Shown here piece after piece: positions 10,816-59,234 of a stretch of DNA of 64,000 nucleotides (position 1 is the first letter of the stretch; every line of letters starts with the position of its first letter). The notes below the pieces were generated by a model that saw only the letters and a program-made list of their open reading frames with translations, had not been told where the DNA came from and searched no databases. The position numbers were made by a program, and so were the translations under genes. Where the stretch lies: the NCBI RefSeq assembly GCF_054482525.1, contig NZ_CM137006.1, one strand, 5' to 3'.

Positions 10816-10988
10816 AAAGTTCTTTTGTGTTGCATTGCTGGCGTAAATGTCAGCAATGCAGCATTTCCTCACGATTCTCCTTTGACGATCGCACTTTTTG
10901 CTCGTTATGATGGCGTCGCTAGCCTCAGTAAATCCTTACTCCGGCGGTGCGCAACCCGTGCGCGTGAACCACTATCTGAATGCTCATC

Positions 10989-11921
10989 ATGCCGAAATTT
11001 CGAGTTTCTTTATTTAGCCTGGCCCTGATGCTGGCTGTGCCTTTTGCACCGCAGGCCGTTGCGAAAACGGCAGCCGCTACCACCGCTTCACAGCCGGAAA
11101 TTGCCTCCGGTAGCGCGATGATTGTTGATCTGAATACCAACAAAGTGATCTATTCGAACCACCCGGATCTGGTGCGTCCGATTGCGTCTATCAGCAAATT
11201 AATGACCGCGATGGTCGTGCTGGATGCGCGACTGCCGCTGGATGAAAAACTAAAAGTGGATATCAGCCAGACGCCGGAGATGAAAGGGGTCTATTCGCGC
11301 GTACGACTGAACAGCGAAATCAGCCGTAAAGATATGCTGTTGCTGGCGCTGATGTCTTCAGAAAACCGCGCGGCGGCAAGCCTTGCGCACCATTATCCCG
11401 GTGGTTACAAAGCCTTTATTAAGGCGATGAATGCGAAAGCGAAATCGCTCGGAATGAACAACACGCGCTTTGTTGAACCGACCGGACTATCGGTGCATAA
11501 CGTTTCAACCGCCCGTGACTTAACCAAACTGCTCATTGCCAGCAAACAATATCCGTTGATCGGGCAGTTAAGTACCACCCGGGAAGATATGGCAACCTTC
11601 TCTAACCCGACGTATACGCTGCCGTTCCGCAATACTAACCATCTGGTGTATCGCGATAACTGGAATATTCAGTTAACCAAAACCGGCTTTACCAATGCGG
11701 CGGGCCATTGTCTGGTGATGCGTACGGTTATCAATAATAAACCGGTGGCGCTGGTAGTGATGGACGCGTTTGGCAAATATACCCATTTTGCCGATGCCAG
11801 CCGCCTGCGTACCTGGATTGAAACCGGTAAAGTGATGCCTGTTCCGGCAGCAGCGTTGAGCTATAAAAAACAAAAAGCCGCCCAAATGGCGGCGGCGGGG
11901 CAGACGGCACAGAACGATTAA
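10989..11921 (+). CDS. pbpG: D-alanyl-D-alanine endopeptidase PBP7
   Basis: Start placed at [25 protein letters not shown] (signal peptide); SxxK active-site motif SISK; recalled identity to PbpG. Confidence 0.9.
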
Positions 11922-31203: not shown

Positions 31204-31312
31204 ATATTCATCCCTGAAATGTATTAATGAAATAAACGATATTTTACGCGCAATAAATGTTTGGCGCATTAGTTGTTTGAGCGAAAAATATCTGGAAAGC
31301 AGATCACAGTAA

Positions 31313-31397
31313 ATAAAAAAACCTGCTGGTGAGGCAGGTTCTTTGATTTACTACTTTCAGGCCTAACACCACGGCCTGTGCAACATCGTGTTCCAAC
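31313..31397 (-). ncRNA. orzO: putative OrzO-1 antitoxin sRNA (boundaries inferred)
   Basis: Minus-strand promoter (-35 TTGCAA, 17-bp spacer, -10 TATAAT as revcomp of 31404-31409) and minus-strand terminator hairpin acctgc...gcaggt plus T-run (31313-31340); contains the complement of a 19-nt stretch that recurs in the zorO-1 5' UTR (31543-31561). Confidence 0.45.
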
Positions 31398-31426
31398 GAA
31401 CGAATTATAACCATCGGTGGACCCCG

Positions 31427-31454
31427 TTGCAATTAAGATAATGAGATTTATAAT
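31427..31454 (+). promoter_or_regulatory. putative sigma70 promoter of zorO-1 (TTGCAA-16 bp-TATAAT); palindromic -35 shared with the divergent orzO promoter
   Basis: -35 ttgcaa 31427-31432, -10 tataat 31449-31454; predicts a 5' UTR of about 174 nt. Confidence 0.5.
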
Positions 31455-31635
31455 CCTGACTGTTGGGACGTTGCGCCGGATCGAACCCATTTCAAGTCCT
31501 GGCTACCGGACGGGTGGTGCCGCAGGTAGTGCCCTGATCCGGAGTGCAACATCGTGGTCCAACATACGTAAACCAGTATCGACAGGCAGTGTAAGGGTAA
31601 GGTGCTGGTGTTGCGCTCCTTAATAAGGAGAGCGA

Positions 31636-31725
31636 ATGGACACGCTGACACAAAAGTTAACCGTGCTCATTGCTGTACTGGAGCTATTAGTGGCTCTGTT
31701 ACGGTTGATTGATTTGTTGAAGTAA
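31636..31725 (+). CDS. zorO: type I toxin ZorO-like small hydrophobic peptide (29 aa), copy 1
   Basis: ATG preceded by SD aaggag; translation MDTLTQKLTVLIAVLELLVALLRLIDLLK; assignment to ZorO of E. coli O157 is from memory; below the ORF-track cut-off. Confidence 0.65.
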   Translation: MDTLTQKLTVLIAVLELLVALLRLIDLLK

Positions 31726-31746
31726 TGGGCAAATTGAAACGCAACT

Positions 31747-31774
31747 AAGGGGGAAAACCGCTTCCCCCTTTAAT
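31747..31774 (+). terminator. rho-independent terminator downstream of zorO-1
   Basis: aagggggaaaaccgcttccccctttaat: GC stem followed by T-run. Confidence 0.7.
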
Positions 31775-31921
31775 AAAATGATTACATCTTCCATTAATTC
31801 ACCCGATAACTTTTTTCATATTTATAAATTCATCGATTTTATAATCAACGTACTATTTGGCCGGGATGTGAATAATCATGGTGGGCTATTGGCGAAAAAT
31901 ATCTGGAAAGTAGATCGTAGA

Positions 31922-32006
31922 AAATAAAAGAACCTGCTGGTGAGGCAGGTTCTTTTATTTACTACTTTGATGTTAAGTTACTGATAGTGCAACATGGCAT
32001 CTCAAC
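31922..32006 (-). ncRNA. orzO: putative OrzO-2 antitoxin sRNA (boundaries inferred)
   Basis: Same promoter/terminator architecture as copy 1; pairing segment differs from copy 1 and matches its own UTR target (32156-32174). Confidence 0.45.
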
Positions 32007-32244
32007 GAACGAATTATAACCACCGCTGGACCGTGTTGCAATTAAGATAATGAGATTTATAATCCTGACTGTTGGGAAGTTGCGCCGGATCGAACCCATT
32101 TCAAGTCCTGGCTACCGGACGGGTGGTGCCGCAGGTAGTGCTCTGATCCGGAGTGCAACATGGCGACTCAACATACGTAAACCAGTATCGACAGGCAGTG
32201 TAAGGGTAAGGTGCTGGTGTTGCGCTCCTTAATAAGGAGAGCGG

Positions 32245-32334
32245 ATGGACACGCTGACACAAAAGTTAACCGTGCTCATTGCCGTACTGGAGCTATTAGT
32301 GGCTCTGTTACGGTTGATTGATTTGTTGAAGTAA
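32245..32334 (+). CDS. zorO: type I toxin ZorO-like small hydrophobic peptide (29 aa), copy 2
   Basis: Identical 29-aa translation to copy 1; SD aaggag upstream. Confidence 0.65.
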   Translation: MDTLTQKLTVLIAVLELLVALLRLIDLLK

Positions 32335-42464: not shown

Positions 42465-43574
42465 ATGAACGAACAATCCCAGGCCAAATCACCAGAAGCC
42501 TTGCGCGCAATGGTCGCCGGGACACTGGCCAATTTTCAGCACCCAACCCTGAAGCATAACCTCACCACGCTGAAAGCGTTGCACCATGTCGCCTGGATGG
42601 ACGACACGTTGCATGTGGAACTGGTTATGCCATTCGTCTGGCATAGCGCGTTCGAAGAGTTAAAAGAGCAATGTAGCGCCGAACTGCTGCGCATCACCGG
42701 GGCGAAAGCTATCGACTGGAAACTGTCGCACAATATCGCCACCTTAAAACGCGTGAAGAATCAGCCGGGAATTAACGGCGTGAAGAACATCATTGCGGTC
42801 AGCTCCGGTAAAGGCGGCGTGGGTAAATCCTCCACGGCGGTAAACCTGGCGCTGGCACTGGCGGCGGAAGGGGCGAAAGTCGGCATTCTGGACGCCGATA
42901 TCTACGGCCCATCAATCCCCACCATGCTGGGCGCAGAAAATCAGCGTCCAACTTCGCCGGACGGTACCCATATGGCACCGATTATGTCTCATGGACTGGC
43001 AACCAATTCAATTGGTTATCTGGTCACTGACGACAATGCGATGGTGTGGCGTGGTCCGATGGCGAGCAAGGCGTTAATGCAGATGTTGCAGGAAACCTTG
43101 TGGCCGGATCTCGACTATCTGGTGCTTGATATGCCGCCAGGCACCGGTGACATTCAATTGACACTGGCACAAAACATTCCAGTAACTGGCGCGGTAGTGG
43201 TCACCACCCCGCAGGACATTGCGTTGATCGATGCGAAAAAAGGCATTGTGATGTTCGAGAAAGTCGAGGTTCCGGTGCTCGGTATTGTCGAGAACATGAG
43301 TGTGCATATTTGCAGTAACTGTGGTCACCATGAACCGATTTTCGGTACCGGTGGTGCAGAGAAACTGGCCGAGAAATACCACACGCAGTTGCTGGGGCAG
43401 ATGCCGTTACACATCTCCTTACGTGAAGATCTCGATAAAGGCACGCCAACGGTTATCAGCCGTCCGGAGAGCGAATTTACCGCTATCTACCGCCAGCTGG
43501 CTGACCGCGTTGCAGCCCAGCTTTATTGGCAGGGAGAAGTCATTCCTGGCGAGATTTCCTTCCGCGCGGTCTGA
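42465..43574 (+). CDS. apbC: Fe-S cluster carrier ATPase ApbC (Mrp)
   Basis: Start placed at MNEQSQAKSPEAL; Walker A SGKGGVGKSS; CxxC motif CSNCGH. Confidence 0.95.
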   Translation: MNEQSQAKSPEALRAMVAGTLANFQHPTLKHNLTTLKALHHVAWMDDTLHVELVMPFVWHSAFEELKEQCSAELLRITGAKAIDWKLSHNIATLKRVKNQPGINGVKNIIAVSSGKGGVGKSSTAVNLALALAAEGAKVGILDADIYGPSIPTMLGAENQRPTSPDGTHMAPIMSHGLATNSIGYLVTDDNAMVWRGPMASKALMQMLQETLWPDLDYLVLDMPPGTGDIQLTLAQNIPVTGAVVVTTPQDIALIDAKKGIVMFEKVEVPVLGIVENMSVHICSNCGHHEPIFGTGGAEKLAEKYHTQLLGQMPLHISLREDLDKGTPTVISRPESEFTAIYRQLADRVAAQLYWQGEVIPGEISFRAV

Positions 43575-43604
43575 CGCGCATTAACCTTTTTGGTTGTTTT
43601 TCAT

Positions 43605-43645
43605 ACACCGCAGAGATGTTACATTGATGCGGTGTATTTGTTTTT
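43605..43645 (+). terminator. rho-independent terminator downstream of apbC
   Basis: Hairpin acaccgcagagatgttacattgatgcggtgt followed by a T-run. Confidence 0.6.
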
Positions 43646-43836
43646 GCCGCATTAATGAACACTTATTTAATGCTGTGAATATTCTGCGGACCTTCGTCCG
43701 AAACTCTATAAAGTCGATTGATCGTACAGGCAATGCTTCATTATCATCCTTCGTGGCTGTGTAGTGGATGTACAGCTATAGTTTGTTATGCACTCATTCT
43801 ATCCAGGCATAACCTTTACTACAGGGATAACGTTCA

Positions 43837-44118
43837 ATGAATAAGTACTGGCTGTCAGGAATTATTTTTCTTGCCTATGGAATGGCTTCTCCCGCGTTCT
43901 CTTCACAGACTGCCACATTAACGATTAATGGCAGGATCAGTCCCCCAACATGCAGTATGGTTATGGTTAATGGTCAACCTCAACAGCATTGTGGTCAGTT
44001 AACGTATGATGTTGATACCCGTCATCAGGTTTCTTCGCCAGTCAAAGGTGTAACGACAGAAGTGGTTGTTGCAGGTAGCGATAGCAAACGTCGAATCGTG
44101 TTAAATCGCTACGATTAA
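43837..44118 (+). CDS. yehE: secreted small protein YehE
   Basis: 93-aa ORF with signal peptide; recalled match to YehE. Confidence 0.8.
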   Translation: MNKYWLSGIIFLAYGMASPAFSSQTATLTINGRISPPTCSMVMVNGQPQQHCGQLTYDVDTRHQVSSPVKGVTTEVVVAGSDSKRRIVLNRYD

Positions 44119-44150
44119 TTTGCCACCCTGGTTTTTTAATCGGATTTAGA

Positions 44151-44190
44151 AAGCTGAAATCATTCGTGTGAATGATTTCAGCTTTTTTAT
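44151..44190 (+). terminator. rho-independent terminator downstream of yehE
   Basis: Hairpin aagctgaaatcatt...aatgatttcagctt followed by ttttttatt. Confidence 0.75.
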
Positions 44191-44413
44191 TGATATCAAT
44201 AATACCATTTACAAAAATCTGCATTAATTAATAGATGTGATAAATATTTAATATGCTTAAGTATTTGTTGTATTTATATTGCAATAGTTAATTTGTTTTA
44301 AATCAATAAAACAATATGTTTACATTGCGGCAACTTTTTTGATGTGAGAAATTTGTTTCCAAGAGATACAGACTCTTAACAACCAAAAAATAAATTTTAT
44401 TAAGGAACATATT

Positions 44414-44956
44414 ATGAAACGTTCAATTATTGCTGCCGCTGTCTTTTCTTCTTTTTTTATGAGCGCTGGGGTATTTGCCGCAGACGTTGATACCGGAACA
44501 TTAACCATTAAAGGGAATATTGCAGAATCTCCGTGTAAATTCGAAGCGGGTGGCGACTCAGTAAGTATTAATATGCCAACTGTACCAACCACTGTCTTTG
44601 AAGGTAAAGCTAAATACTCGACCTATGATGATGCAGTCGGTGTAACCAGCAGCATGTTAAAAATTAGCTGTCCGAAAGAAGTTGCTGGTGTAAAACTCTC
44701 GTTGATTACCAACGATAAAATAACCGGAAACGATAAGGCGATAGCCAGTAGCAACGATACCGTGGGGTACTATCTCTATTTAGGTGATAACAGCGATGTC
44801 CTGGATGTTTCTGCACCTTTTAACATTGAGAGTTATAAAACAGCGGAAGGTCAATATGCTATTCCGTTTAAAGCAAAATACCTGAAGCTGACAGATAATT
44901 CAGTGCAATCAGGTGATGTGTTATCTTCTCTGGTTATGCGTGTGGCGCAGGATTAA
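44414..44956 (+). CDS. yehD: chaperone-usher fimbrial major subunit YehD
   Basis: 180-aa ORF with signal peptide and fimbrial-subunit Cys pair. Confidence 0.85.
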   Translation: MKRSIIAAAVFSSFFMSAGVFAADVDTGTLTIKGNIAESPCKFEAGGDSVSINMPTVPTTVFEGKAKYSTYDDAVGVTSSMLKISCPKEVAGVKLSLITNDKITGNDKAIASSNDTVGYYLYLGDNSDVLDVSAPFNIESYKTAEGQYAIPFKAKYLKLTDNSVQSGDVLSSLVMRVAQD

Positions 44957-44993
44957 TAAATAAAATTTCAAGTTTCTCCAGGTAATAAACATG

Positions 44994-45023
44994 GCCGCTA
45001 TCCCCATGGCGGCCTTTTAATTT
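44994..45023 (+). terminator. intra-operon hairpin (possible attenuator) between yehD and yehC
   Basis: ggccgc...gcggcc stem followed by ttttaattt, in the position typical of fimbrial-operon attenuators. Confidence 0.4.
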
Positions 45024-45036
45024 AAGAGGCATTAAG

Positions 45037-45711
45037 ATGAAAGGATTATTAGCTTTACTCATTTCTTCTATGGTCCTTCCTGCACATGCCGGTATTGTTA
45101 TCTACGGGACGCGTATTATTTACCCGGCAGAAAATAAAGAAGTGATGGTGCAGTTGATGAATCAGGGAAACCGTTCTTCGCTGCTGCAGGCGTGGATTGA
45201 TGATGGTGATACGTCGTTACCACCAGAAAAAATTCAGGTTCCTTTCATGTTAACGCCACCAGTGGCAAAAATAGGGGCAAATTCCGGGCAGCAAGTAAAA
45301 ATCAAAATTATGCCGAATAAACTGCCCACTAATAAAGAGAGCATTTTTTATCTGAATGTTCTGGATATTCCACCAAATAGTCCAGAGCAAGAGGGCAAGA
45401 ATGCACTGAAATTTGCAATGCAAAACAGAATAAAATTGTTTTACCGGCCTGCGGGTATTGCACCGGTAAATAAAGCGACATTTAAAAAGTTACTGGTAAA
45501 TCGCAGTGGCAATGGATTGGTGATAAAAAATGACGCAGCAAATTGGGTGACGATTTCGGATGTCAAAGCTAATAATGTCAAAGTCAATTATGAAACTATT
45601 ATGATTGCCCCCTTAGAAAGTCAGAGTATTAATGTCAAAAGTAATAATGCGAATAACTGGTATCTGACCATTATCGATGACCATGGCAACTATATTAGTG
45701 ACAAAATTTAA
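45037..45711 (+). CDS. yehC: periplasmic fimbrial chaperone (PapD-like) YehC
   Basis: 224-aa ORF with signal peptide MKGLLALLISSMVLPAHA. Confidence 0.85.
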   Translation: MKGLLALLISSMVLPAHAGIVIYGTRIIYPAENKEVMVQLMNQGNRSSLLQAWIDDGDTSLPPEKIQVPFMLTPPVAKIGANSGQQVKIKIMPNKLPTNKESIFYLNVLDIPPNSPEQEGKNALKFAMQNRIKLFYRPAGIAPVNKATFKKLLVNRSGNGLVIKNDAANWVTISDVKANNVKVNYETIMIAPLESQSINVKSNNANNWYLTIIDDHGNYISDKI

Positions 45712-45726
45712 TTGCAGGAGCTGCCT

Positions 45727-48207
45727 ATGTTGAGAATGACCCCACTTGCATCAGCAATCGTAGCGTTATTGCTCGGCATTGAAGCTTATGCAGCTGAAGA
45801 AACCTTTGATACCCATTTTATGATAGGTGCAGTGAAAGATCAGCAGGTTGCAAATATTCGTCTTGATGATAATCAACCCTTGCCGGGGCAGTATGACATC
45901 GATATTTATGTCAATAAGCAATGGCGCGGGAAATATGAGATTATTGTTAAAGACAACCCGCAAGAAACATGTTTATCAAGGGAAATTATCAAGCGGTTAG
46001 GCATTAATACCGATAACTTTGCCAGCGGTAAGCAATGTTTAACATTTGAGCAACTTGTTCAGGGTGGGAGCTATACCTGGGATATCGGAGTTTTTCGTCT
46101 CGATTTCAGTGTCCCGCAGGCGTGGGTGGAAGAACTGGAAAGTGGCTATGTTCCACCGGAAAACTGGGAGCGGGGTATTAATGCGTTTTATACCTCTTAT
46201 TATGTGAGTCAGTATTACAGCGACTATAAAGCGTCGGGTAATAGTAAGAGTACATATGTACGTTTTAACAGCGGGTTAAACTTACTGGGGTGGCAACTGC
46301 ATTCTGATGCCAGTTTCAGTAAAACAAATAGCAATCCAGGGGTGTGGAAAAGCAATACCCTGTATCTGGAACGTGGATTTGCCCAACTTCTCGGCACGCT
46401 TCGCGTGGGTGATATGTACACATCAAGCGATATTTTTGATTCTGTTCGCTTCAGCGGTGTGCGGTTGTTTCGTGATATGCAGATGTTGCCTAACTCGAAA
46501 CAAAATTTTACTCCACGGGTGCAGGGGATTGCTCAGAGTAACGCGCTGGTAACTATTGAACAGAATGGTTTTGTGGTTTATCAGAAAGAGGTTCCTCCTG
46601 GCCCGTTTGCGATTACAGATTTGCAGTTGGCCGGGGGTGGAGCGGATCTTGATGTCAGCGTGAAAGAGGCGGACGGTTCGGTAACCACCTATCTGGTGCC
46701 TTATGCAGCGGTGCCGAATATGCTGCAACCTGGCGTGTCGAAATATGATTTTGCGGCGGGTCGTAGCCATATTGAAGGGGCGAGCAAACAAAGTGATTTT
46801 GTCCAGGCGGGTTATCAGTATGGTTTTAATAACTTATTGACGCTGTATGGTGGATCGATGGTCGCGAATAATTATTACGCGTTCACTTTGGGGACTGGCT
46901 GGAATACACGCATTGGTGCCATTTCCGTCGATGCCACGAAGTCGCATAGTAAACAAGACAACGGCGATGTGTTTGACGGGCAAAGTTATCAAATTGCCTA
47001 CAACAAATTTGTGAGCCAAACGTCGACGCGTTTTGGTCTGGCGGCCTGGCGTTATTCGTCGCGTGATTACCGGACATTTAACGATCACGTTTGGGCAAAC
47101 AATAAAGATAATTATCGCCGTGATGAAAACGATATCTATGACATTGCCGATTATTACCAGAACGATTTTGGCCGTAAAAATAGCTTTTCTGCCAATATGA
47201 GCCAGTCATTGCCAGAAGGCTGGGGTTCTGTGTCCTTAAGTACGTTATGGCGAGATTACTGGGGGCGTAGCGGCAGCAGTAAGGATTATCAGTTGAGTTA
47301 TTCCTACAACCTGCGACAGATAAGCTATACCCTCGCGGCAAGCCAGGCTTATGACGAGAATCATCATGAAGAGAAACGTTTTAATATTTTTATATCGATT
47401 CCCTTTGATTGGGGTGATGACGTTACGACGCCTCGTCGGCAAATATATATGTCTAACTCAACGACGTTTGATGATCAGGGTTTTGCCTCAAATAATACGG
47501 GATTATCAGGAACCGTTGGAAGCCGGTATCAATTTAACTATGGGGTCAACCTGAGTCATCAGCATCAGGGAAATGAAACGACAGCTGGAGCGAATTTAAC
47601 CTGGAACGCGCCGGTGGCAACGGTGAATGGCAGTTATAGTCAGTCGAGTACTTATCGACAGGCTGGAGCCAGTGTTTCAGGGGGCATTGTCGCCTGGTCG
47701 GGTGGCGTTAATCTGGCGAACCGTCTTTCCGAAACGTTTGCTGTGATGAATGCGCCAGGAATTAAAGATGCTTATGTCAATGGGCAAAAATATCGCACAA
47801 CAAACCGTAATGGAGTGGTGGTATACGACGGAATGACACCTTATCGGGAAAATCACCTGATGCTGGATGTGTCGCAAAGCGATAGCGAAGCAGAATTACG
47901 TGGCAACCGGAAAATTGCCGCCCCTTTTCGCGGCGCGGTTGTACTGGTTAATTTTGATACCGATCAGCGCAAGCCCTGGTTTATAAAAGCGTTAAGAACG
48001 GATGGGCAACCATTAACGTTTGGTTATGAAGTCAATGATATCCATGGTCATAATATTGGCGTTGTCGGCCAGGGAAGCCAGTTATTTATTCGCACCAATG
48101 AAGTACCGCCATCGGTTAATGTAGCAATTGATAAGCAACAAGGACTTTCATGCACAATCACCTTCGGTAAAGAGATTGATGAAAGTAGAAATTATATTTG
48201 CCAGTAA
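45727..48207 (+). CDS. yehB: outer-membrane fimbrial usher YehB
   Basis: ATG at 45727 preceded by SD gcaggag (the ORF-track start at 45712 is TTG); 826 aa with signal peptide. Confidence 0.9.
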   Translation: MLRMTPLASAIVALLLGIEAYAAEETFDTHFMIGAVKDQQVANIRLDDNQPLPGQYDIDIYVNKQWRGKYEIIVKDNPQETCLSREIIKRLGINTDNFASGKQCLTFEQLVQGGSYTWDIGVFRLDFSVPQAWVEELESGYVPPENWERGINAFYTSYYVSQYYSDYKASGNSKSTYVRFNSGLNLLGWQLHSDASFSKTNSNPGVWKSNTLYLERGFAQLLGTLRVGDMYTSSDIFDSVRFSGVRLFRDMQMLPNSKQNFTPRVQGIAQSNALVTIEQNGFVVYQKEVPPGPFAITDLQLAGGGADLDVSVKEADGSVTTYLVPYAAVPNMLQPGVSKYDFAAGRSHIEGASKQSDFVQAGYQYGFNNLLTLYGGSMVANNYYAFTLGTGWNTRIGAISVDATKSHSKQDNGDVFDGQSYQIAYNKFVSQTSTRFGLAAWRYSSRDYRTFNDHVWANNKDNYRRDENDIYDIADYYQNDFGRKNSFSANMSQSLPEGWGSVSLSTLWRDYWGRSGSSKDYQLSYSYNLRQISYTLAASQAYDENHHEEKRFNIFISIPFDWGDDVTTPRRQIYMSNSTTFDDQGFASNNTGLSGTVGSRYQFNYGVNLSHQHQGNETTAGANLTWNAPVATVNGSYSQSSTYRQAGASVSGGIVAWSGGVNLANRLSETFAVMNAPGIKDAYVNGQKYRTTNRNGVVVYDGMTPYRENHLMLDVSQSDSEAELRGNRKIAAPFRGAVVLVNFDTDQRKPWFIKALRTDGQPLTFGYEVNDIHGHNIGVVGQGSQLFIRTNEVPPSVNVAIDKQQGLSCTITFGKEIDESRNYICQ

Positions 48208-48222: not shown

Positions 48223-49257
48223 ATGAAAATTCGCATAATGCTATTTATATTAATGATGATAGTTATGCCTGTGAGCTATGCGGCATGTTATAGTGAGTTA
48301 TCTGTTCAGCACAATTTGGTTGTTCAGGGGGATTTTGCACTTAGTCAAACACAAATAGCGACATATGAGCATAATTTTAATGATTCGTCATGCGTGAGTA
48401 CAAATACTATCACCCCTATGAGCCCATCGGATATTATTGTTGGACTTTATAACGATACCATTAAATTAAATTTACATTTTGAATGGACCAATAAAAACAA
48501 CATCACGTTGTCAAATAATCAGACCAGTTTCACCAGTGGTTATTCGGTAACGGTGACACCTGCGGCCAGTAATGCAAAAGTGAATGTTTCTGCGGGGGGC
48601 GGCGGTTCAGTGATGATTAATGGTGTTGCGACATTATCCAGTGCTTCATCATCGACACGCGGGAGTGCTGCAGTACAATTTTTACTGTGTTTATTAGGTG
48701 GCAAGTCATGGGATGCATGTGTAAATAGCTACAGAAATGCATTGGCACAAAATGCAGGTGTCTATTCCTTTAATCTGGCATTGTCATATAACCCGATAAC
48801 CACAACCTGCAAACCGGACGATTTATTAATTACTTTAGAGAGTATTCCCGTTTCACAATTACCAGTCACAGGTAACAAAGCAACAATAAATAGTAACAAA
48901 GGGGATATTGTTCTGCGTTGTAAAAACTTATTAGGTCAACAAAATCAAACATCACGGAAAATGCAGGTGTATTTATCAAGTTCTGACTTGTTAAACAACA
49001 GCAACACGATACTTAAAGGTGCAAAAGATAATGGCGTAGAATTTGTTCTTGAAAGTAATGGTTCGCCAGTCACACTTTTAAATATCACTGACAGCAGTAA
49101 AGGATACACAAATTTAAAAGAAATTGCGGCGAAGTCAAAACTTACAGATACAACGGTTTCAATTCCGATAACAGCCAGTTACTACGTCTACGATACAAAC
49201 AAAGTTAAATCCGGCGCACTGGAGACAACCGCATTAATCAACGTGAAATACGACTAA
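48223..49257 (+). CDS. yehA: fimbrial adhesin-like / minor subunit YehA
   Basis: 344-aa ORF with signal peptide; last gene of yehDCBA. Confidence 0.8.
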   Translation: MKIRIMLFILMMIVMPVSYAACYSELSVQHNLVVQGDFALSQTQIATYEHNFNDSSCVSTNTITPMSPSDIIVGLYNDTIKLNLHFEWTNKNNITLSNNQTSFTSGYSVTVTPAASNAKVNVSAGGGGSVMINGVATLSSASSSTRGSAAVQFLLCLLGGKSWDACVNSYRNALAQNAGVYSFNLALSYNPITTTCKPDDLLITLESIPVSQLPVTGNKATINSNKGDIVLRCKNLLGQQNQTSRKMQVYLSSSDLLNNSNTILKGAKDNGVEFVLESNGSPVTLLNITDSSKGYTNLKEIAAKSKLTDTTVSIPITASYYVYDTNKVKSGALETTALINVKYD

Positions 49258-49312: not shown

Positions 49313-49340
49313 TCCCCCTCATGATGAGGGGGCTTTTTTT
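49313..49340. terminator. bidirectional terminator between yehA and rcnB
   Basis: ccccctcatgatgaggggg followed by ctttttttag. Confidence 0.7.
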
Positions 49341-51210: not shown

Positions 51211-51292
51211 CAACCAAACGACTCGGGGTGCCCTTCTGCGTGAAGGCTGAGAAATACCCGTATCACCTGATCTGGATAATGCCAGCGTAGGG
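51211..51292 (+). repeat. attL: left copy of the 82-bp direct repeat (thiM riboswitch aptamer segment)
   Basis: Identical to 59101-59182. Confidence 0.8.
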
Positions 51293-51375
51293 GGCCAAAA
51301 TAGTCTTGAAAATTATGTGGTTGTATCTCTTTTTGACCATAAATCATGCTGTTAAGGTACAAAAAGGGGTCGTTT

Positions 51376-52683
51376 ATGAGGTCAAGAACTCTCCCATACA
51401 CATTTCAGCGAAACGGTAATTACTATCTACAAATCCGGCTTTCGGATGGTCGGATATACAAAAAATCACTTTTTACTGACAGTTATCGCGAAGCATCGGC
51501 GTTGATGATTGGCCTTACTCCGCACATTCCTTTCGTTAAATCACTCGCTACTCCGTTGCCGCAATTTAATAAGTTTGTTTCAAACTTGATCGCTTCGTCA
51601 CGTAACGTAATGATTCCGTTGCCACTCCCTCAGCAATTGAACAATATTTCTAAAGAAGTTTTGCAGCTTCAACCACCAGCCAAACCGGAAAAGGTACTAA
51701 CACTTGCTGATGCGTGGGCTATGTACAAGGAGGAAAGAGGTCGAAATTGGACAAAATCGATCTCAATAGCAAATGAGCGTTATATGGAGGTATTGCTTGT
51801 TGTCTTGGGAAAAGAAACAGACGTAACGGCAATCACCAAACAAGATATTAAGCGAGTAATGGAAACTGTCGAAAACTTACCAAAGCGTGTAGTGCAACCG
51901 TATAGGTCAATGACTATTCAGCAACTAATCGAATGTGATGATGTGCTGCCAGAGGATTTAGTTGGTGCTGAGGCTGTACATAAGCACCTTAAAATCTACA
52001 AATCGTTATTCAAAACATTTCTGACTGAAAACAAAGATATTCTATCTAAGTCTCCGACTGATGGAATAGTAGCGGCACCATCCAAAGCTAGGTTTGGTGC
52101 ATACAGTGCAGCAGAAATGAAAAAATTTGTAGGATGGGCACTAAAGCAGCCTGATGGATGGCAGAAGTGGATCACTTTGTTGTTGGCGTACACAGGAGCC
52201 AGAAGAGGTGAGATTGCTAAACTGGAGAAGTCGCAGATCAAATTTGATGAAGATAGCCAGCGGCACTATCTTCTGATCGCGGAAAGAAGGCTGGGTAAAA
52301 CTGAGAATGCTACAAGACAGGTAGTGATTCATCCCAAACTGATTGAGTGGGGGTTTCTGGATTTTGTTAACCGCCAATGGAAAGAGAAAATCTTTTCGGA
52401 AGTCTCAGGTCGAAATATGTCAAAGATAGGTAAAGTTCTTTCAGATGTTCGTGATCAGCTTGATATTCCTTATCTTGATGATTATGGGCAGCGGCGCTTG
52501 GTGCATAGTTTCCGGCATACTATGATTTCTACTTGTTTAGCTGGTTGGGTGAGTAATTTGGCGCATCTGCAACAGGTGGTAGGTCATGAAAAGAGTGGAG
52601 TAGGGATTACCCAGCGTTATCTGCACACATTCCCACTTTCCACCGTTTGTTATGTGATCGATGGTCTTTGTTGGGAGACTTAG
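51376..52683 (+). CDS. int: tyrosine site-specific integrase
   Basis: ATG at 51376 preceded by SD aaaagggg; C-terminal catalytic block HSFRHTMISTCLAGW...GHEKSGVGITQRYLH (R, H-x-x-R, Y). Confidence 0.85.
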   Translation: MRSRTLPYTFQRNGNYYLQIRLSDGRIYKKSLFTDSYREASALMIGLTPHIPFVKSLATPLPQFNKFVSNLIASSRNVMIPLPLPQQLNNISKEVLQLQPPAKPEKVLTLADAWAMYKEERGRNWTKSISIANERYMEVLLVVLGKETDVTAITKQDIKRVMETVENLPKRVVQPYRSMTIQQLIECDDVLPEDLVGAEAVHKHLKIYKSLFKTFLTENKDILSKSPTDGIVAAPSKARFGAYSAAEMKKFVGWALKQPDGWQKWITLLLAYTGARRGEIAKLEKSQIKFDEDSQRHYLLIAERRLGKTENATRQVVIHPKLIEWGFLDFVNRQWKEKIFSEVSGRNMSKIGKVLSDVRDQLDIPYLDDYGQRRLVHSFRHTMISTCLAGWVSNLAHLQQVVGHEKSGVGITQRYLHTFPLSTVCYVIDGLCWET

Positions 52684-52811
52684 TTATTCGTGTATCCTTC
52701 TTAGTGTATAACCAGCTAATAATTTGTAGATTTTTATTGTCTGAGATCAAAAATTTTCACAACTAATTTACAATAATAACTTAAGATGAATTTAGGCTTA
52801 GTGAGTCTTCT

Positions 52812-53537
52812 ATGGTTAAAAATTTAGGCAAAAAATACAAGTATGGCGATCAACCGATAAGAGCTATTACCATACAGATAATTGCTAATCAGTTTGGTGG
52901 GGCTGCAACGGCTAAGCAGGTAGATGATTATCTTAGAAAGCTATTTCCATCTTATAAAGATAATACTTGGCTCAATTTAATTGCTAATACAGTTAATTGT
53001 AAGCGGAGCTACTGGAGTTTCAACAAAACTGCCCGACGAACTGATGATGTAACTCATCGGCATCATAAGTATGACCGATTGTTCAAGCGTGGAAATATTT
53101 TTGAAATCTATCAACCATCTGTGCACGGTATTTGGGAATTATACCAGGATTTAGAAGGGATGTGGCGTTATCGTCAAGTAAAATCGGTTTTCGAAGAAGC
53201 TGTTGAGACGGCTGCAAAATTATCTTCAGTGGAACGAAAGCAAATTTTAGCGACAGAAAGTAAAATCCCGGAACTAATCGAAGTAACAACACGAGTTTAT
53301 AAACGAAGCCCATATGTAGTTGCTGAAGTTCTTTTGAGAGCAAATGGAAAATGTCAATATTGTAAGCGAGATGCTCCTTTTCTAAAGGAAGATGGTACTC
53401 CATTTCTAGAAGTTCATCATATTGAGTGGCTTTCAAAGGGGGGGGAGGACTCTGTGGAAAATGCTATTGCATTATGTCCTAATTGCCATAGACAAGCCCA
53501 TTATGGCGATCTGACATTACTACCTGTTAATAAATAG
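52812..53537 (+). CDS. McrA-like HNH endonuclease (candidate type IV / modification-dependent restriction or defense nuclease)
   Basis: C-terminal CQYCKRDAPF...LEVHHIEWLSKGGEDSVENAIALCPNCHRQAHY closely resembles the recalled McrA HNH region; N-terminal about 190 aa unrecognised. Confidence 0.65.
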   Translation: MVKNLGKKYKYGDQPIRAITIQIIANQFGGAATAKQVDDYLRKLFPSYKDNTWLNLIANTVNCKRSYWSFNKTARRTDDVTHRHHKYDRLFKRGNIFEIYQPSVHGIWELYQDLEGMWRYRQVKSVFEEAVETAAKLSSVERKQILATESKIPELIEVTTRVYKRSPYVVAEVLLRANGKCQYCKRDAPFLKEDGTPFLEVHHIEWLSKGGEDSVENAIALCPNCHRQAHYGDLTLLPVNK

Positions 53538-53614
53538 GCTTGATGAAAGTTCTATTTCTATATTTTTCAATATACAAATTTCCCCAAAAACGGCGTGAAT
53601 ATCACGCCGATCAA

Positions 53615-53962
53615 TCATACTTCAGAACACATACTCAATGTGTAAACAGCCATCTCCCCATCGGGATTAGAAGGGCGTAATACAAATATCGGTATACTGC
53701 CATTGTCAATGTATGTGGCTGCAACCCCTCCGTCAGGTGTAGCATACATCTTTGCGATGCTTTTTTGACCTACAAAATCAAGTCTCCAAGTTTTACCGCC
53801 AAGATTTATGGTCATTTTTTTATCTTGTATATCAAAAGTTGAATCTACAGAAACTTTCTGACTTCCCGAGTCAATATGACCTTCCTGTATTGCTTTACAG
53901 GAAAAGGTTGTGGCGTGGCCCATCACTGGAATTAACAAAGCGGCAAATACTAGTTTTTTCAT
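53615..53962 (-). CDS. hypothetical secreted protein
   Basis: Start placed at MKKLVFAALLIPVMGHA (signal peptide); divergent from the XRE-family gene. Confidence 0.45.
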   Translation of the reverse strand: MKKLVFAALLIPVMGHATTFSCKAIQEGHIDSGSQKVSVDSTFDIQDKKMTINLGGKTWRLDFVGQKSIAKMYATPDGGVAATYIDNGSIPIFVLRPSNPDGEMAVYTLSMCSEV

Positions 53963-54072
53963 TTGTCTCCCTTGGTGTGTCAAATGGATGGTGATGCTAA
54001 TAATACATGATTGATTCAAAATGTCACGATTAGTGCGTGGTTAATTGGTGCGTCAAATTGCATCTTTGTGCC

Positions 54073-54537
54073 ATGCGAAAGAATCTGAGATACCTTTTTG
54101 GACAACGAGTAAAAGAGTTCCGTATAGCTATTGGCTTAAGCCAAGAGGCCTTTGCAGATCGGTGTGGTTTTGCACGTAGTTATATGAGTCGAATTGAGCG
54201 TGGTTGCTCTAATGCATCTCTTGATGCAATTGAGGTTCTGGCTGACGCTTTGCGTATTGAGCCTTGGCAGTTACTGGCTTCTGATTCAAGGAAACCTGAT
54301 GATCAGGAGGTACTTGTTCCTTATGCTGCAGATGGGTCGTGTTTTCATCCAGGATTGGCAAGTACTCGCGATGGTTCGTTTAGAGTAGGGGAAAAATCAG
54401 CCCAGAAACGTTTCAGTTCGTTCAATGAAGCTCTCGAATACCTTCGTGGAATGGAAACCGCGAAGTGGCGTAGGCCTAATGCTAGTGGTAATTGGGGAAT
54501 TGTATCTGCGGTTAAATGGGATCGACTGAATCAATAA
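54073..54537 (+). CDS. XRE-family helix-turn-helix transcriptional regulator with C-terminal extension
   Basis: N-terminal HTH (LRYLFGQRVKEFRIAIGLSQEAFADRCGFARSYMSRIERG); start could also be 54037. Confidence 0.6.
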   Translation: MRKNLRYLFGQRVKEFRIAIGLSQEAFADRCGFARSYMSRIERGCSNASLDAIEVLADALRIEPWQLLASDSRKPDDQEVLVPYAADGSCFHPGLASTRDGSFRVGEKSAQKRFSSFNEALEYLRGMETAKWRRPNASGNWGIVSAVKWDRLNQ

Positions 54538-54703
54538 GATATCAGTAATTTTCGGGCCACTCCACAAGGCAATAAGTGGCTTAGTGGTGATTATCGAAGG
54601 GGAATACAAGCGAGCACCTAGGCACCATTGCAAGAACCGCTCAACGCTGAGATCAGCAAGCCCCGATTTTTGCCGACCGTCCCTGTCAAATATCAAGGAG
54701 GCA

Positions 54704-55255
54704 TTACGCCACCTGCTCTTTCTTGATACGTTGCACCGTCTGCGTGCTGACACTGAAATCTTTTGCTACGCTCCGAATTGAGCCACCATTCGCGAGAGCG
54801 GCAGCAATTCCCGCTCGATCAATTGCTTTTCCATTACCACGTTTTGCTATACGTCCAGCGGCCTTGGCTGCGGCGATCCCTTCACGTTGACGCTCAAGCA
54901 TCATTTCACGTTCCATTTGTGCCACTGCTGCAAGAACTGTGAGCATCATATTCCCTGCGGGAGAGTTCTTTCCTGTCTTAAAGTCTTCTTTATGGAAATG
55001 CACAGACACGCCGCGCTTTGTTAATTGCTCTACAGTTGCCAGAAGGTCGGCTGTATTACGACAAAGGCGATCAATACTATGGACGTGTAACACGTCACCC
55101 TCCCGCACATAGTTCATCATTGCCTCAAACTGTGGGCGCTGAGTGTTCTTGCCTGACGCTTTATCTTCAAAGACTTTATCAAGAGTTACTCCTGCTAATT
55201 GACGGTCTGTGTTTTGTTGCACAGTCGATACCCTAATGTATCCAATATTAGCCAT
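54704..55255 (-). CDS. small serine recombinase (resolvase/invertase family)
   Basis: N-terminal catalytic motif GYIRVSTVQQ (Ser nucleophile) and C-terminal HTH; 183 aa. Confidence 0.8.
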   Translation of the reverse strand: MANIGYIRVSTVQQNTDRQLAGVTLDKVFEDKASGKNTQRPQFEAMMNYVREGDVLHVHSIDRLCRNTADLLATVEQLTKRGVSVHFHKEDFKTGKNSPAGNMMLTVLAAVAQMEREMMLERQREGIAAAKAAGRIAKRGNGKAIDRAGIAAALANGGSIRSVAKDFSVSTQTVQRIKKEQVA

Positions 55256-55741
55256 CTTCTTTTTTCTTCTGTATTGATTTGTGTGTAGTGATTATTGAAC
55301 GTGTTGATTAGGTGTGTAAAGTACTTTTTTCACTACGAAATTCGAAGTTTTTTAGTGTGGTGATTTAGCCTGCCTTATCACTACACTTCTTGCATGAGAA
55401 TCATGTAGTTACATTTTGGTAAAATTAGCAAGCTATTAAATTGTGTGTTTATTTTGAAAAAATAATTTTTGTTGCATTAAAGAAAACTTGTTCGACAAAT
55501 AATAGGTTGATTTTTGATCAATAATTTCTGATAGTGCTCTGTAAGCCGCATTACACAAGGCGCAGCGAAAGTGATGTAAAAGTGAAGAAAGCTAACATTG
55601 CACTTTTAAACTACTTTTCATTGAATTTTTTAGTATGGAATTACACAGGAATAAGTTAGGGATATTCTATGATTTACACAGGGAATATAGGGGGATTATG
55701 GTATTACACAGAGTGAGTGCTATGTGATGATTGGTAGTAAC

Positions 55742-55850
55742 GGTAGGTCACTGTGAACTAGGGGGGTAGGTCACTGTGAACTAGGGGGGTAGGTCACTGT
55801 GAGCTAGGGGGTAGGTCACTGTGAACTAGGGGGTAGGTCACTGTGAACTA
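55742..55850 (+). repeat. iteron array (5 direct repeats of about 22-24 bp), candidate replication origin
   Basis: ggtaggtcactgtgaactaggggg repeated five times head-to-tail, flanked by AT-rich DNA and further ttacacag / gtgtaatt motifs. Confidence 0.7.
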
Positions 55851-57106
55851 CAATAAGACTATAATAAGACTATTAATAAAACTATATTAGATTATTAATT
55901 AGATCATAATAATAATATTCTTTATATCTATATATATATGATCTTTTGCCTTCCGGCGTTAGCTTCACTCTCTGGCAAGCAGCCTTACTCCGCTACCTTT
56001 CGGGCTACGTTGGCTGGCCCGTTCCGCTCACACCGAAAGCAAAGCGTTACTTTCTTCGTGTAACTTCGTTGGCGGTAACGCCCACGAAGGAATACTATTG
56101 CGCTGTGCGCAGTAAGAGTAATCACCTAACCAATCATCTGATTGCTTACGTGTTAACTCTCTCTAACTCTTAATTACCCTCCTACATTTAATAACTCTCG
56201 TTATTCTCTGTAGTTGTGTAATTACTCGAAGAGAGAGCGGCTAAAGCTCAATTACACTCTGCTTTCCTCGTGTAATTTCACTAAGCCTCAATACAATTTC
56301 ACTTCCTACATTCTGTAGTCGTGTAATTGTTTTCGGTGGAAAAGCCAGAGGCGACACCGAAAGAGAATTCTGATCTTATTAATCTTATCTATCTTAGTTA
56401 TCTTACTTACTTTATCTACTTTATTATTAATAATAGCTTTATAAGCTCTCTGTGTAGCTCTCTGACGCAAGAAACAGAGTTCAGGAAGGGAATCACCTTA
56501 GAAAAGTGTTCTTTGCGTCATAATGTGTTTTATGAAGGATTCAGAGGTGTTTCATAACAGAGATGTATAGAGGATACTTTAGGTAATTAAAAATAAGGGG
56601 TCTAAATGCTTCTCTAACAGCATTAAGCAGGGTAGAGAATGGAAACCGCTTTGCCTACATATATAAACTCACTACAGGGCTTTACAGAGCGTTTTATAAA
56701 GTGACTCTCTGTTTTATATCTACCATCACCTTTTCATATACCTAACAAATACAAAATAAGCCCCTTAAATAAGCCTCTGGCGAGCTAAACAGCCATTACA
56801 TAAGAGAATGTATTGCTTTTATCAAAACCTCGTTAGAACGCGTTTTAGAGCGTTTTAGCGGATAATGAAGAATAGCACTACACAGGAGAGCACGAATTGC
56901 TAAGAAAAAATGTAACTACATGAAAAAGATCAGATTTTTTGTGAAAAGGTATTGACAAACGTCTCTTTCTGTGCAATAATAGGTATTAGAGGGACAGGAA
57001 TAGATTCTTATCCTCTAAATAATTAAACCAATGCACCGCACTTTGAAGCCCAAGGCTTGTAAGGTGTGTTTTTTCTTTTAACCAAATAGAATAAGGAGGC
57101 TAATTA

Positions 57107-57295
57107 ATGAAATATTTTACTCCACAGGATGTAGTAGAAGCCTGGAAACGTGGTGAGATCAACCGCTTTAAAGTAAGGATGTATAGAAACACCGCTCGCC
57201 GTTGTGGTTATCCAGAGCGTGAAAAATGTTTTGACGATGCACTAAAAATTATTGATGAACTGCGTAAAGCTGAGAAAGAAGCAGAGAAAAAATAA
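57107..57295 (+). CDS. hypothetical small protein (62 aa)
   Basis: ATG preceded by strong SD aaggagg; first of four co-directional genes each with a strong SD. Confidence 0.45.
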   Translation: MKYFTPQDVVEAWKRGEINRFKVRMYRNTARRCGYPEREKCFDDALKIIDELRKAEKEAEKK

Positions 57296-57317
57296 TAGAC
57301 AAGAGAAGGAGAAAACT

Positions 57318-57485
57318 ATGAGCGAAACTAAGAAACCAATTCCGCGCACTTACCTACACGTTGACCCTGAAATCTTCAAGGTTTTATTTGCTGAAGCCAA
57401 GAAAAGGCAAATTATGGTCAGTGATTTGATGTTAGAAATCATTACTGAAGCAGCAGAGAACATCAAACAAAAAAAGGGTAAGTGA
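57318..57485 (+). CDS. hypothetical small protein, possibly ribbon-helix-helix DNA-binding (56 aa)
   Basis: ATG preceded by SD aaggag; below the ORF-track cut-off from this start; RHH call is weak pattern-based inference. Confidence 0.4.
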   Translation: MSETKKPIPRTYLHVDPEIFKVLFAEAKKRQIMVSDLMLEIITEAAENIKQKKGK

Positions 57486-57536
57486 TCCTCATTCACTTTA
57501 GTAGCGCATTAAGCGTGATTTATAAGGAGATTTTTA

Positions 57537-58226
57537 ATGATTAATCAACTAACTTTTACAAAACACTATGACACGTTTGATAATGTATCAAAGATTTATT
57601 CTGATAAATTCCCTCAAGGAAAAGATTTAGATCTATTACATATTGTGCTTTATTTTCGATTCCTTAGTTATCAGGAAAACAACCTTAATTGTTATGAAAG
57701 TCACGAAACATTAGCTAAGATTTTTAAGTCTTCAGCGTCAACAATTAAACGTAAGATAAACGATCTTAAAGAGATGGGATTATTAGAAACATCCCCACAT
57801 CCTGATCCGTATATTTCATCTTTGATTTACAATGCTCTCCCTCTCACAGATGCACATATTACTCCCCCAGGAGAATCATCACTCTCTGATCTTTCTGAGG
57901 CAGAAGAAGCACAGGAACAACCTAAAGGCCATAAACAGCCTTCTTTTGATGTTCTTGATGATTGGGATACGCCTTTACCCTGGGAGACGGAAGAAACACC
58001 TGTTTCATCAAGTGAAAAAGTAGCTAATGATAATGAGGAGGATGTGTTAGAGAATTTTGCCTCTCTTATCATCCAGGAGAAACACACAAGAACAGGAGGA
58101 GCATCATTTATTGAGTTTGCAAATTCACTAGCTTGTAGATACGGGCTAAAACGACCAAATGGTATTGAGGCATATTTTTCTAAGAATTACCCAAATATAT
58201 ACGATGACTTTGATATTCCATTTTAA
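57537..58226 (+). CDS. putative winged-helix DNA-binding / replication-initiator-like protein
   Basis: 229-aa ORF with SD aaggag; N-terminal HTH-like segment and acidic C-terminus; lies downstream of the iteron array. Confidence 0.4.
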   Translation: MINQLTFTKHYDTFDNVSKIYSDKFPQGKDLDLLHIVLYFRFLSYQENNLNCYESHETLAKIFKSSASTIKRKINDLKEMGLLETSPHPDPYISSLIYNALPLTDAHITPPGESSLSDLSEAEEAQEQPKGHKQPSFDVLDDWDTPLPWETEETPVSSSEKVANDNEEDVLENFASLIIQEKHTRTGGASFIEFANSLACRYGLKRPNGIEAYFSKNYPNIYDDFDIPF

Positions 58227-58237
58227 TAAGGAGGGTT

Positions 58238-58483
58238 ATGATTCAATATTTAGTAAAAAATCAAGTAGACAGAATTCAGTGTAATGACACAGGAAAACGC
58301 ATCTACGAGACACTTGTTTACCTCTATAAAGGAAAGCCAACACCGCTAAAATATAGCGATGTGTTACATCGAGCAGGTTGCTCTGAGTCAGGTTTAAAAT
58401 TCTGGCTGAAACAGCTATCAAATTTCGGTGTTATTGAAATGAAAGAGCTGTCTTTTTCTACATTCAACCTCAAGAAGTTATAG
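58238..58483 (+). CDS. hypothetical small DNA-binding-like protein (81 aa)
   Basis: ATG preceded by SD aaggagg. Confidence 0.4.
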   Translation: MIQYLVKNQVDRIQCNDTGKRIYETLVYLYKGKPTPLKYSDVLHRAGCSESGLKFWLKQLSNFGVIEMKELSFSTFNLKKL

Positions 58484-58648
58484 AAAATAGAATTCATCTA
58501 TTCCACGCTCTAATTCTATTTCTCTGTTTAATATAAAAGGAAAACATTATTATGGTAATAGCTATGTGGTGGTTGTTGTTTTTTATGCTCGTAGAAACAT
58601 ATGCAAGTAAGTCTGGAAAACAAAAATAATATATTGATGATTTGTTTT

Positions 58649-58888
58649 TTATAACTTCGTGGTGTCAAGTCCAGCAGCTTTGAGTCGCTCGGTAAGATTT
58701 CTCATTTTGCTGAACTCTGTACCAAAGCTGGCTTTAAGTCCTACACCTTCACAAAACTCTTTTGCCGTAACCTTTTTCAGATGGTCAGCATATTTGATCA
58801 TCTGGAGGTGCATTTCCATCGTTTGGCTATTTCGTGGTGCGCTGCTAATGGCTTGCTTAATGTTCTCGTAGATCTGGGTTTCTGTCAT
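58649..58888 (-). CDS. hypothetical small HTH-like protein (79 aa)
   Basis: 79-aa ORF convergent with the four-gene module; possible HTH (VTAKEFCEGVGLKASFGTEFSKM). Confidence 0.35.
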   Translation of the reverse strand: MTETQIYENIKQAISSAPRNSQTMEMHLQMIKYADHLKKVTAKEFCEGVGLKASFGTEFSKMRNLTERLKAAGLDTTKL

Positions 58889-59100
58889 TTTTTATCTCAC
58901 CTATCAAATTTAGATAAATAATATAAATTAGCAAATTAAGATAATCAATAGTTTTTATCATCTGAATGATAGATGTTAAATGTTTCTTTTTCATTTCTGA
59001 TATGGGGTACAAAATGGGGTACACAGAGAAGAAGCAATTAATGGAGGCGAGCTTGCATCTGCAAGCCACTTCCCCTAAGCTGGCACAAAATATAGAGATT

Positions 59101-59234
59101 CAACCAAACGACTCGGGGTGCCCTTCTGCGTGAAGGCTGAGAAATACCCGTATCACCTGATCTGGATAATGCCAGCGTAGGGAAGTCACGGACCACCAGG
59201 TCATTGCTTCTTCACGTTATGGCAGGAGCAAACT
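59101..59234 (+). promoter_or_regulatory. thiM TPP riboswitch (thi-box aptamer plus expression platform)
   Basis: Sequence cgactcggggtgcccttctgcgtgaaggctgagaaatacccgtatcacctgatctggataatgccagcgtagggaagtc... matches the E. coli thiM riboswitch from memory; ends at the thiM start codon; the first 82 nt double as attR. Confidence 0.85.

Follow-up and report, generated by a model that had tools for sequence, protein, structure and literature searches.

Between the major fimbrial subunit gene yehD and the chaperone gene yehC, the window (the whole 64-kb stretch of DNA analyzed here) carries a GC-rich hairpin followed by a U-run, which we propose is probably a leaky Rho-independent terminator, with a stem that would also protect the 3' end of the yehD message and with yehC starting at the ATG at 45037. 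Good comparative evidence suggests that this hairpin is under selection: it recurs at the same place in related pilus operons, although its sequence differs among genera.

The region carries metG, apbC (mrp), yehE, yehD, yehC, yehB, yehA, rcnB, rcnA and rcnR, and it is identical (100%) to that of Escherichia coli strain PCN033, the RefSeq annotation of which fits the yehC start given above. Pfam assignments confirm that yehDCBA supplies all four components expected of a minimal chaperone-usher pilus operon (Table 1), in which YehA is a two-domain adhesin with its fimbrial domain at the C-terminal end. The yeh operon is presumably poorly expressed in the laboratory. On its 5' side, the yehDCBA transcription unit is bounded by the terminator behind yehE, and the promoter of the unit must therefore fall within 44186-44413. 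The Hultgren nomenclature names these genes in transcription order, such that its yehA corresponds to K-12 yehD and its yehD to K-12 yehA (PMC12778044).

Table 1. Features of the yeh region, in coordinates of the window.
Feature	Position	Strand	Description	Evidence
yehE	43837-44118	+	gene upstream of yehDCBA	
yehE terminator	44150-44185	+	16-bp stem, TTTATTG tail; dG -21.1, tail score -4.30	hairpin scan
yehD	44414-44956	+	major fimbrial subunit, 180 aa	ORF list; RefSeq PCN033; Pfam PF00419 Fimbrial
9-codon ORF	44991-45020	+	MAAIPMAAF*, through the hairpin, stops in the U-run	translation
Hairpin	44993-45014	+	GGCCGCTAT-CCCC-ATGGCGGCC, between yehD and yehC	fold; terminator scan
Hairpin loop	45002-45005	+	polymorphic C-run, CCCC here and CCC in K-12-type strains	alignments
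U-rich tail	45015-45024	+	TTTTAATTTA, predicted release zone of intrinsic terminator	sequence; terminator scan
yehC Shine-Dalgarno	45024-45029	+	AAGAGG, 7 nt before ATG	
yehC	45037-45711	+	periplasmic chaperone, 224 aa	ORF list; RefSeq PCN033; Pfam PapD_N + PapD_C
yehB	45727-48207	+	outer-membrane usher	RefSeq PCN033 coordinates; Pfam Usher, PapC_N, PapC_C
yehA	48223-49257	+	tip adhesin, 344 aa	ORF list; Pfam Fimbrial domain at C-terminus
Operon-end terminator	49314-49332	+	CCCCCTCATGATGAGGGGG then CTTTTTTT; dG -13.9, tail score -3.85	terminator scan

The arms of the yehD-yehC hairpin, GGCCGCUAU (44993-45001) and AUGGCGGCC (45006-45014), pair into a stem of 9 bp that includes 6 G-C pairs and one U.G pair and is closed by a 4-nt loop (-14.5 kcal/mol). 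An earlier note on this DNA had recognized the GC stem and the T-run, seeing of the former a 6-bp core. The hairpin lies 36 nt past the yehD stop and 22 nt ahead of the yehC ATG, is the sole element of the centroid fold, and is also detected by the terminator scan. Its tail, UUUUAAUUUA, has U at 6 of the first 8 positions and a tail score of -4.55. The element has the hallmarks of an intrinsic terminator, namely a GC-rich stem of 5-14 bp with a loop of 3-8 nt and a U-rich tract right after the stem, as well as those of a post-major-subunit hairpin, being positioned on the coding strand between the major subunit and the assembly genes and conserved with compensatory changes. It resembles canonical terminators, such as the one after yehA (49314-49332), in that a stop codon is followed on the coding strand by a GC-rich stem with a short loop and then by a U-rich tail; unlike them, it is internal to an operon, and its U-tract is interrupted after four U (UUUUAAUUU) and is not conserved in sister species. 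The broken U-tract suggests that termination efficiency is probably partial, and the position inside the operon means that the terminator must be leaky if the pilus is to be assembled.

Within the window, perfect hairpins with a dG of -12 or lower and a T-rich tail (score <= -3.8) are rare, with only 7 on both strands of the 64 kb, and the three that were checked against genes are positioned at the ends of yehE, yehA and metG. The tail of the yehD-yehC hairpin falls within the range of the other T-tailed hairpins of the window (-3.85 to -5.81), compared with about -1.5 to -2.7 for hairpins lacking a T-rich tail. Generic tests gave no signal: the terminator pattern scan found 3 sites in 6.1 kb, fewer than the 5.5 expected from shuffles, and the z-score of the 96-nt fold was only -0.64 and not significant. 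As these generic significance tests were uninformative, we relied on comparative evidence. An Rfam scan of the whole window at gathering scores placed no family at the yehD-yehC spacer.

A single YehC scan of species-representative genomes yielded 80 loci, 78 of them usable, and the 34 closest (yeh/yhl/stc-like) were from Escherichia, Salmonella, Citrobacter, Klebsiella, Superficieibacter, Pseudescherichia and Edwardsiella. All 34 contain a YehD homologue, a perfect GC-rich hairpin (dG -12 to -23) and the chaperone gene, with a median of 24.5 nt from the end of the stem to the chaperone ATG (IQR 22-25), and in any one of them at most 3 of 100 dinucleotide-preserving shuffles matched the observed hairpin energy. 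Across the 78 loci, which are phylogenetically related, 71% have a hairpin with a dG of -12 or lower, vs 1.7% of the coding-sequence windows that served as the main control (Mann-Whitney p = 3e-20). The stem sequences are unrelated between genera, which indicates that the hairpin has been maintained while its sequence turns over. Within Escherichia, 96% of the cells of the stem alignment are paired, in a small sample of 11 sequences, and compensatory changes were observed at three pairs, comprising G-C to A-U replacements at two core positions and one pair of an outer stem extension that is present in only four non-coli sequences; nearly all of this signal disappeared when the partner column was slid by 1-3 positions. 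In addition, a U-rich tail (score <= -3.5) follows the stem in 47% of the 34 loci vs 8.5% of random positions in the same regions, an approximately five-fold excess.

We propose that transcription would start upstream of yehD and that a fraction of polymerases would stop at about 45019-45024, giving a short, 3'-protected mRNA for yehD only, while the remaining polymerases would read through into yehC, yehB and yehA, genes without a recognizable promoter of their own. A sequence scan of the stretch from the yehD stop to yehC found nothing promoter-like, from which we infer that read-through must occur. A single promoter would in this way yield major subunit in excess over chaperone, usher and adhesin. 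The earlier note had described the hairpin as expected for an attenuator setting the stoichiometry of subunit to chaperone; this idea gains comparative support from the occurrence of the hairpin in all 34 operons, the compensatory changes and the enriched U-tails, and the effect on stoichiometry remains its predicted consequence.

Similar arrangements are known from other operons. In the fim operon, a stem-loop likewise lies right after the major subunit gene, between fimA and fimI, and before the rest of the chaperone-usher operon, and it is thought to give an excess of major-subunit message (bioRxiv 10.1101/2022.02.17.480891). Klemm (1984, as cited in the same preprint) proposed that it serves as the terminator of fimA, and Term-seq mapped a primary fimA 3' end to position 4543708, just past the hairpin (eLife 2021, PMC7815308 supplement), a position that in the K-12 annotation is also the 3' end of the sRNA FimR2, the function and RNase E processing of which have been described (bioRxiv 10.1101/2022.02.17.480891). 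However, the fim and yeh hairpins share no sequence similarity, the fim hairpin does not have the canonical U-run of its E. coli yeh counterpart, and the gene that follows is the subunit-like fimI in fim and the chaperone gene in yeh. In the pap operon, as in the model proposed here, the message of the major pilin (papA) exceeds those of the assembly genes via RNA structure at transcript boundaries (PMC5927463). The documented pap mechanism, with its stable papA message and processed papBA transcript, relies chiefly on RNase E cleavage between papB and papA and on a 5' hairpin, whereas the yeh unit has no papB-like gene upstream.

The main rival to a leaky terminator is a decay-only mechanism, in which the hairpin would be a purely 3'-protective stem-loop of the malE-malF type and the ratio of subunit to machinery would be set by mRNA decay rather than by termination. 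Read-through would then be full, RNase E would cut in the AU-rich stretch or in the body of yehCBA, and 3'-exonucleases would trim the products back to the hairpin, such that only the yehD segment survives. The general mechanism, in which protective 3' structures increase the level of an operon's upstream gene, is documented (PMC5927463), and in malE-malF, as in yeh, a stable hairpin that blocks 3'-exonucleases is positioned in the spacer after the most-needed gene (PMC5927463). Moreover, the hairpin is universal among the 34 closest operons, while the U-tail is missing in about 20% of them, including all four non-coli Escherichia; the fimA-fimI hairpin also marks a mapped 3' end without a U-run, and the segment 3' of the yeh stem (UUUUAAUUUAAG) is AU-rich and single-stranded in the centroid fold. 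The malEF element consists of non-terminating REP repeats, whereas the yeh hairpin is single-copy and has a terminator-type U-tail in E. coli. Against protection alone, this E. coli tail scores as well as the other T-tailed hairpins of the window, among them those after yehE, yehA and metG, and U-rich tails are enriched across the family. Protection and termination are not mutually exclusive. We therefore regard protection alone as an unlikely explanation, albeit one deserving serious consideration, and leaky termination as the preferred one.

The sister species of E. coli are informative in this respect. In the other Escherichia species the stem, at -17 to -19 kcal/mol, is stronger than that of E. 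coli and is followed by GCAUAAAUAU, and in the non-coli Escherichia GCATAAATAT takes the place of the U-run (tail score -2.1 to -2.5). Since these species keep a stronger hairpin without a U-run, the conserved function may be protection of the 3' end and not termination. One evolutionary reading, for which we see only a rather slim chance, is that a stronger, tail-less protective hairpin was the ancestral state and became a true leaky terminator in the E. coli lineage, with the stem having been weakened (C-G to U.G, with loss of the basal pair) and a U-run gained, and that the 3' fragment of yehD might in addition function like FimR2 as an sRNA. If this conversion were true, control of the subunit-to-machinery ratio would have moved from mRNA decay to transcription termination.

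It is very unlikely that the hairpin defines an sRNA from the yehD 3' UTR with trans-acting targets, a possibility raised by analogy with FimR2. The K-12 ncRNA fimR2 (b4838) is annotated exactly on the fimA-fimI hairpin, and the same layout is found in yeh, where a single-stranded stretch of about 36 nt, followed by a hairpin and U-tail, resembles a typical sRNA 3' end; however, FimR2 is an experimentally shown sRNA, its yeh counterpart a putative one. An Rfam search of 43500-46500 at a permissive threshold returned chance-level eukaryotic matches only (best E 0.37-5.7), conservation of the 36-nt spacer is only moderate even among Escherichia, and the lack of relationship among the stems of different genera also argues against such an RNA.

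Control of yehC translation, either by a leader peptide whose translation would melt the stem or by access to the Shine-Dalgarno sequence, appears highly improbable. A short upstream ORF ending in a stop, mentioned in the earlier note, is indeed present (Table 1) and covers the whole stem, the stem ends only 9 nt before the Shine-Dalgarno sequence, and the distance from hairpin to ATG is tightly conserved. This spacing is, however, the minimum that the tail, the Shine-Dalgarno sequence and a spacer require, and neither the Shine-Dalgarno sequence nor the ATG is sequestered in the centroid fold. The ORF start is CTG or TTG in Escherichia whittamii and Escherichia albertii, the AGG ahead of it is gone in strain ATCC 25922, and no such ORF exists in other genera. 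A leader peptide was rejected because the start codon is not conserved, and we regard the ORF as a side effect of the palindrome rather than as a gene.

The evidence favours the ATG at 45037 (MKGLL...) as the start of yehC in every strain. This start, already chosen in the earlier note, matches RefSeq PCN033 and has AAGAGG at -7, within a region, TAAGAGGCAT(T/C)AA(G/A)ATG, that is common to Escherichia and its two nearest other relatives (loci L020 and L043), with the exception of TAGAGG at locus L014. Residues 1-18 of YehC form a signal peptide, MKGLLALLISSMVLPAHA, and PapD_N starts at residue 19. In all 34 closest loci the chaperone has a signal peptide of 18-20 residues that opens with Met-Lys/Arg, continues with a hydrophobic core and an A-x-A-like site, and is followed by the invariant mature sequence G-x-x-I-Y-G-T-R-(I/V)-I-Y-P. 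A stop codon is found 0-1 codon upstream of the chaperone start in 4 of the 34, and among the 28 loci outside Escherichia an in-frame upstream ATG occurs in none (0/28) and an upstream GTG or TTG in only four.

In K-12 (NC_000913), as the earlier note had stated, yehC is annotated with a longer form, of 720 nt and 239 aa, starting MAAIPWRPFNLRGIKMKGLL at an ATG that lies in the hairpin's 5' arm. The note had taken the window strain to have lost an N-terminal extension, and K-12-type strains would accordingly make a longer YehC precursor that a +1 frameshift had removed here. Identity with K-12 at this site, which the note had named as refuting its reading, was not observed: by alignment, the K-12 loop is CCC and thus one base shorter than the CCCC of the window, and on this single base depends the frame of the ATG at 44991 relative to yehC. 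The K-12 sequence has this upstream ATG in an open frame with yehC, the curated record uses it, and in-frame upstream ATGs also occur in some non-coli Escherichia; in the window, the 16 codons that precede 45037 in the yehC frame contain neither a stop nor a start codon. The direction of change, however, is the reverse of a loss. E. whittamii, E. albertii and two further Escherichia species have the 4-nt loop AUUC at the same position, which indicates that a 4-nt loop is ancestral and that CCC is a derived one-base deletion; the 15-codon extension of K-12 results from this deletion, which brings the ATG of the 5' arm into frame. The spacer is carried by about 4890 of 5426 complete E. coli genomes, and the CCC core by 2002 of these yeh-bearing genomes (~41%), leaving ~59% in which the frame is absent.

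Other observations also argue against a longer precursor. The upstream ATG is buried in the first base-paired part of a -14 kcal/mol stem and preceded only by the weak AGG. Neither a conserved in-frame start nor a ribosome-binding site with an accessible start codon, as expected of a genuine N-terminally extended YehC, was found. PGAP rejects the long start even for K-12, calling 224 aa on the MG1655 assembly as it does in all other strains sampled. At least 1000 contigs in the protein collection carry the short K-12 form and 191 the 239-aa form, with the original K-12 GenBank entry and UniProt YEHC_ECOLI among the records of the long form. The long form would have a signal peptide of 33 residues, with PapD_N starting at residue 34, vs the 18-20 residues typical of the family, and both precursors would be cleaved after AHA, giving the same mature protein. 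A true longer precursor in K-12-type strains is thus hardly credible; we conclude that the window strain has lost no N-terminal extension and that the 239-aa K-12 YehC is almost certainly an annotation artefact. The curated K-12 record (b2110, UniProt YEHC_ECOLI) most likely has the wrong start and should be changed to 224 aa, as PGAP has it. This is an ordinary annotation error, corrected in practice by RefSeq.

The chance that the hairpin is a fortuitous palindrome or a copy of a dispersed repeat (REP) without function here is practically negligible, since, despite the terminator count below shuffle expectation and the weak fold z-score, it recurs at the same position in 34/34 operons with differing stems and compensatory changes, and the sequence is single-copy (in about 4890 genomes, median 1 place per genome, maximum 2), on which grounds a REP element was rejected.

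A hairpin after the major subunit gene is a long-known motif, and no description of the yeh one was found in the literature. The Term-seq tables in the supplements of PMC7815308 and PMC12207403 contain no entry for yehD or yehC 3' ends, a literature search for a yehD/yehC terminator returned nothing but unrelated riboswitch screens of whole genomes, in which the operon is listed as a neighbour, transcriptome papers that mention yeh genes say nothing on transcript structure, and terminators and stem-loops are not mentioned in a review of chaperone-usher regulation (PMC9820224). The survey adds that a hairpin before the chaperone gene is near-universal in the pilus clade of yeh, yhl, stc and relatives, and it lends support to the long-standing view that RNA structure is how these operons set an excess of subunit. 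In practical terms the value is modest, and no new question is opened; when Yeh pili are expressed from a foreign promoter, it is relevant that a terminator-like hairpin separates the subunit gene from the chaperone gene.

The hairpin is also variable within E. coli. The exact 65-mer of the window is present in 565 complete E. coli genomes, and further alleles sampled have the 4-nt loops TCCC and CTCC. A functional effect of the one-base loop indel is unlikely, as the predicted stability is nearly the same (-14.5 kcal/mol for CCCC vs -14.1 kcal/mol for CCC, a difference of 0.4). In addition, some E. coli alleles have a C-to-U change at the last stem position, by which a G.U pair is kept and the U-run is lengthened.

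Upstream of the pilus operon yehDCBA, a strong hairpin (Table), together with its TTTATTG tail, lies right after yehE, which therefore constitutes a separate transcription unit, and the yehDCBA promoter must fall in 44186-44413. In addition, DUF2574, the YehE family, gave a weak match to the N-terminus of YehD (residues 1-44, 44414-44545), with an E-value of 8e-4 that is below the cut-off. This suggests that yehE (43837-44118) is akin to the leader and N-terminal portion of a fimbrial subunit.

The yehD-yehC spacer was also compared among other Escherichia. In E. coli ES1 (L010, NZ_CM184353.1), an IS1 element is inserted in the U-run, two bases past the hairpin stem (about 195-260 of the compared locus), and parts yehD and the hairpin from the yehC ribosome-binding site. 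The yehC frame is open upstream too in four loci from non-coli Escherichia (L016, L038, L015 and L017; 50 nt before yehC), in which the arms of the hairpin contain in-frame ATG or TTG codons (codon positions -16 and -11). Gene callers could produce the same spurious yehC extension there as that annotated in K-12. A second chaperone locus, 55-57% identical, was observed in E. whittamii and Escherichia sp. E1V33 (L033 and L035); these second loci probably represent Yhl, the Yeh-like operon described in PMC12778044. They carry an unrelated hairpin of their own, ATCGGCG(A/G)C-loop-G(T/C)CGCCGAT, located 21-22 nt upstream of the chaperone ATG.

Several further elements were observed in the window. 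A 7.9-kb island (51211-59182) is bounded by a perfect direct repeat. This repeat is the aptamer of the TPP riboswitch (Rfam RF00059) in the thiM leader, and the riboswitch aptamer appears to be the attachment site of the island. The island encodes a tyrosine integrase, the gene for which is now preceded by the left-hand aptamer copy, and its other products include an HNH endonuclease, a serine resolvase/invertase and HTH proteins. Elsewhere, a 609-nt tandem duplication (31281-32286) with two OrzO/OrzP antitoxin RNAs resembles zorO/zorP, a type I toxin-antitoxin pair. Finally, an ORF (10980-11921) is positioned immediately downstream of the match to the Peptidase-S11 RNA motif.

Table. Positions of RNA elements, repeats and the integrase gene in the window
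Feature	Coordinates	Strand	Remark
Peptidase-S11 RNA motif (RF03039)	10904-10984		72.8 bits vs gathering score 34.8
OrzO/OrzP antitoxin RNAs (RF02083)	31315-31390 and 31926-31999	minus	Rfam match
Hairpin directly 3' of yehE	44150-44185		16 bp, TTTATTG tail, dG -21
Island direct repeat, two copies	51211-51292 and 59101-59182		Perfect, 82 nt
RF00059 matches at island ends	51214-51309 and 59104-59200		Rfam
Tyrosine integrase, island-encoded	51346-52683
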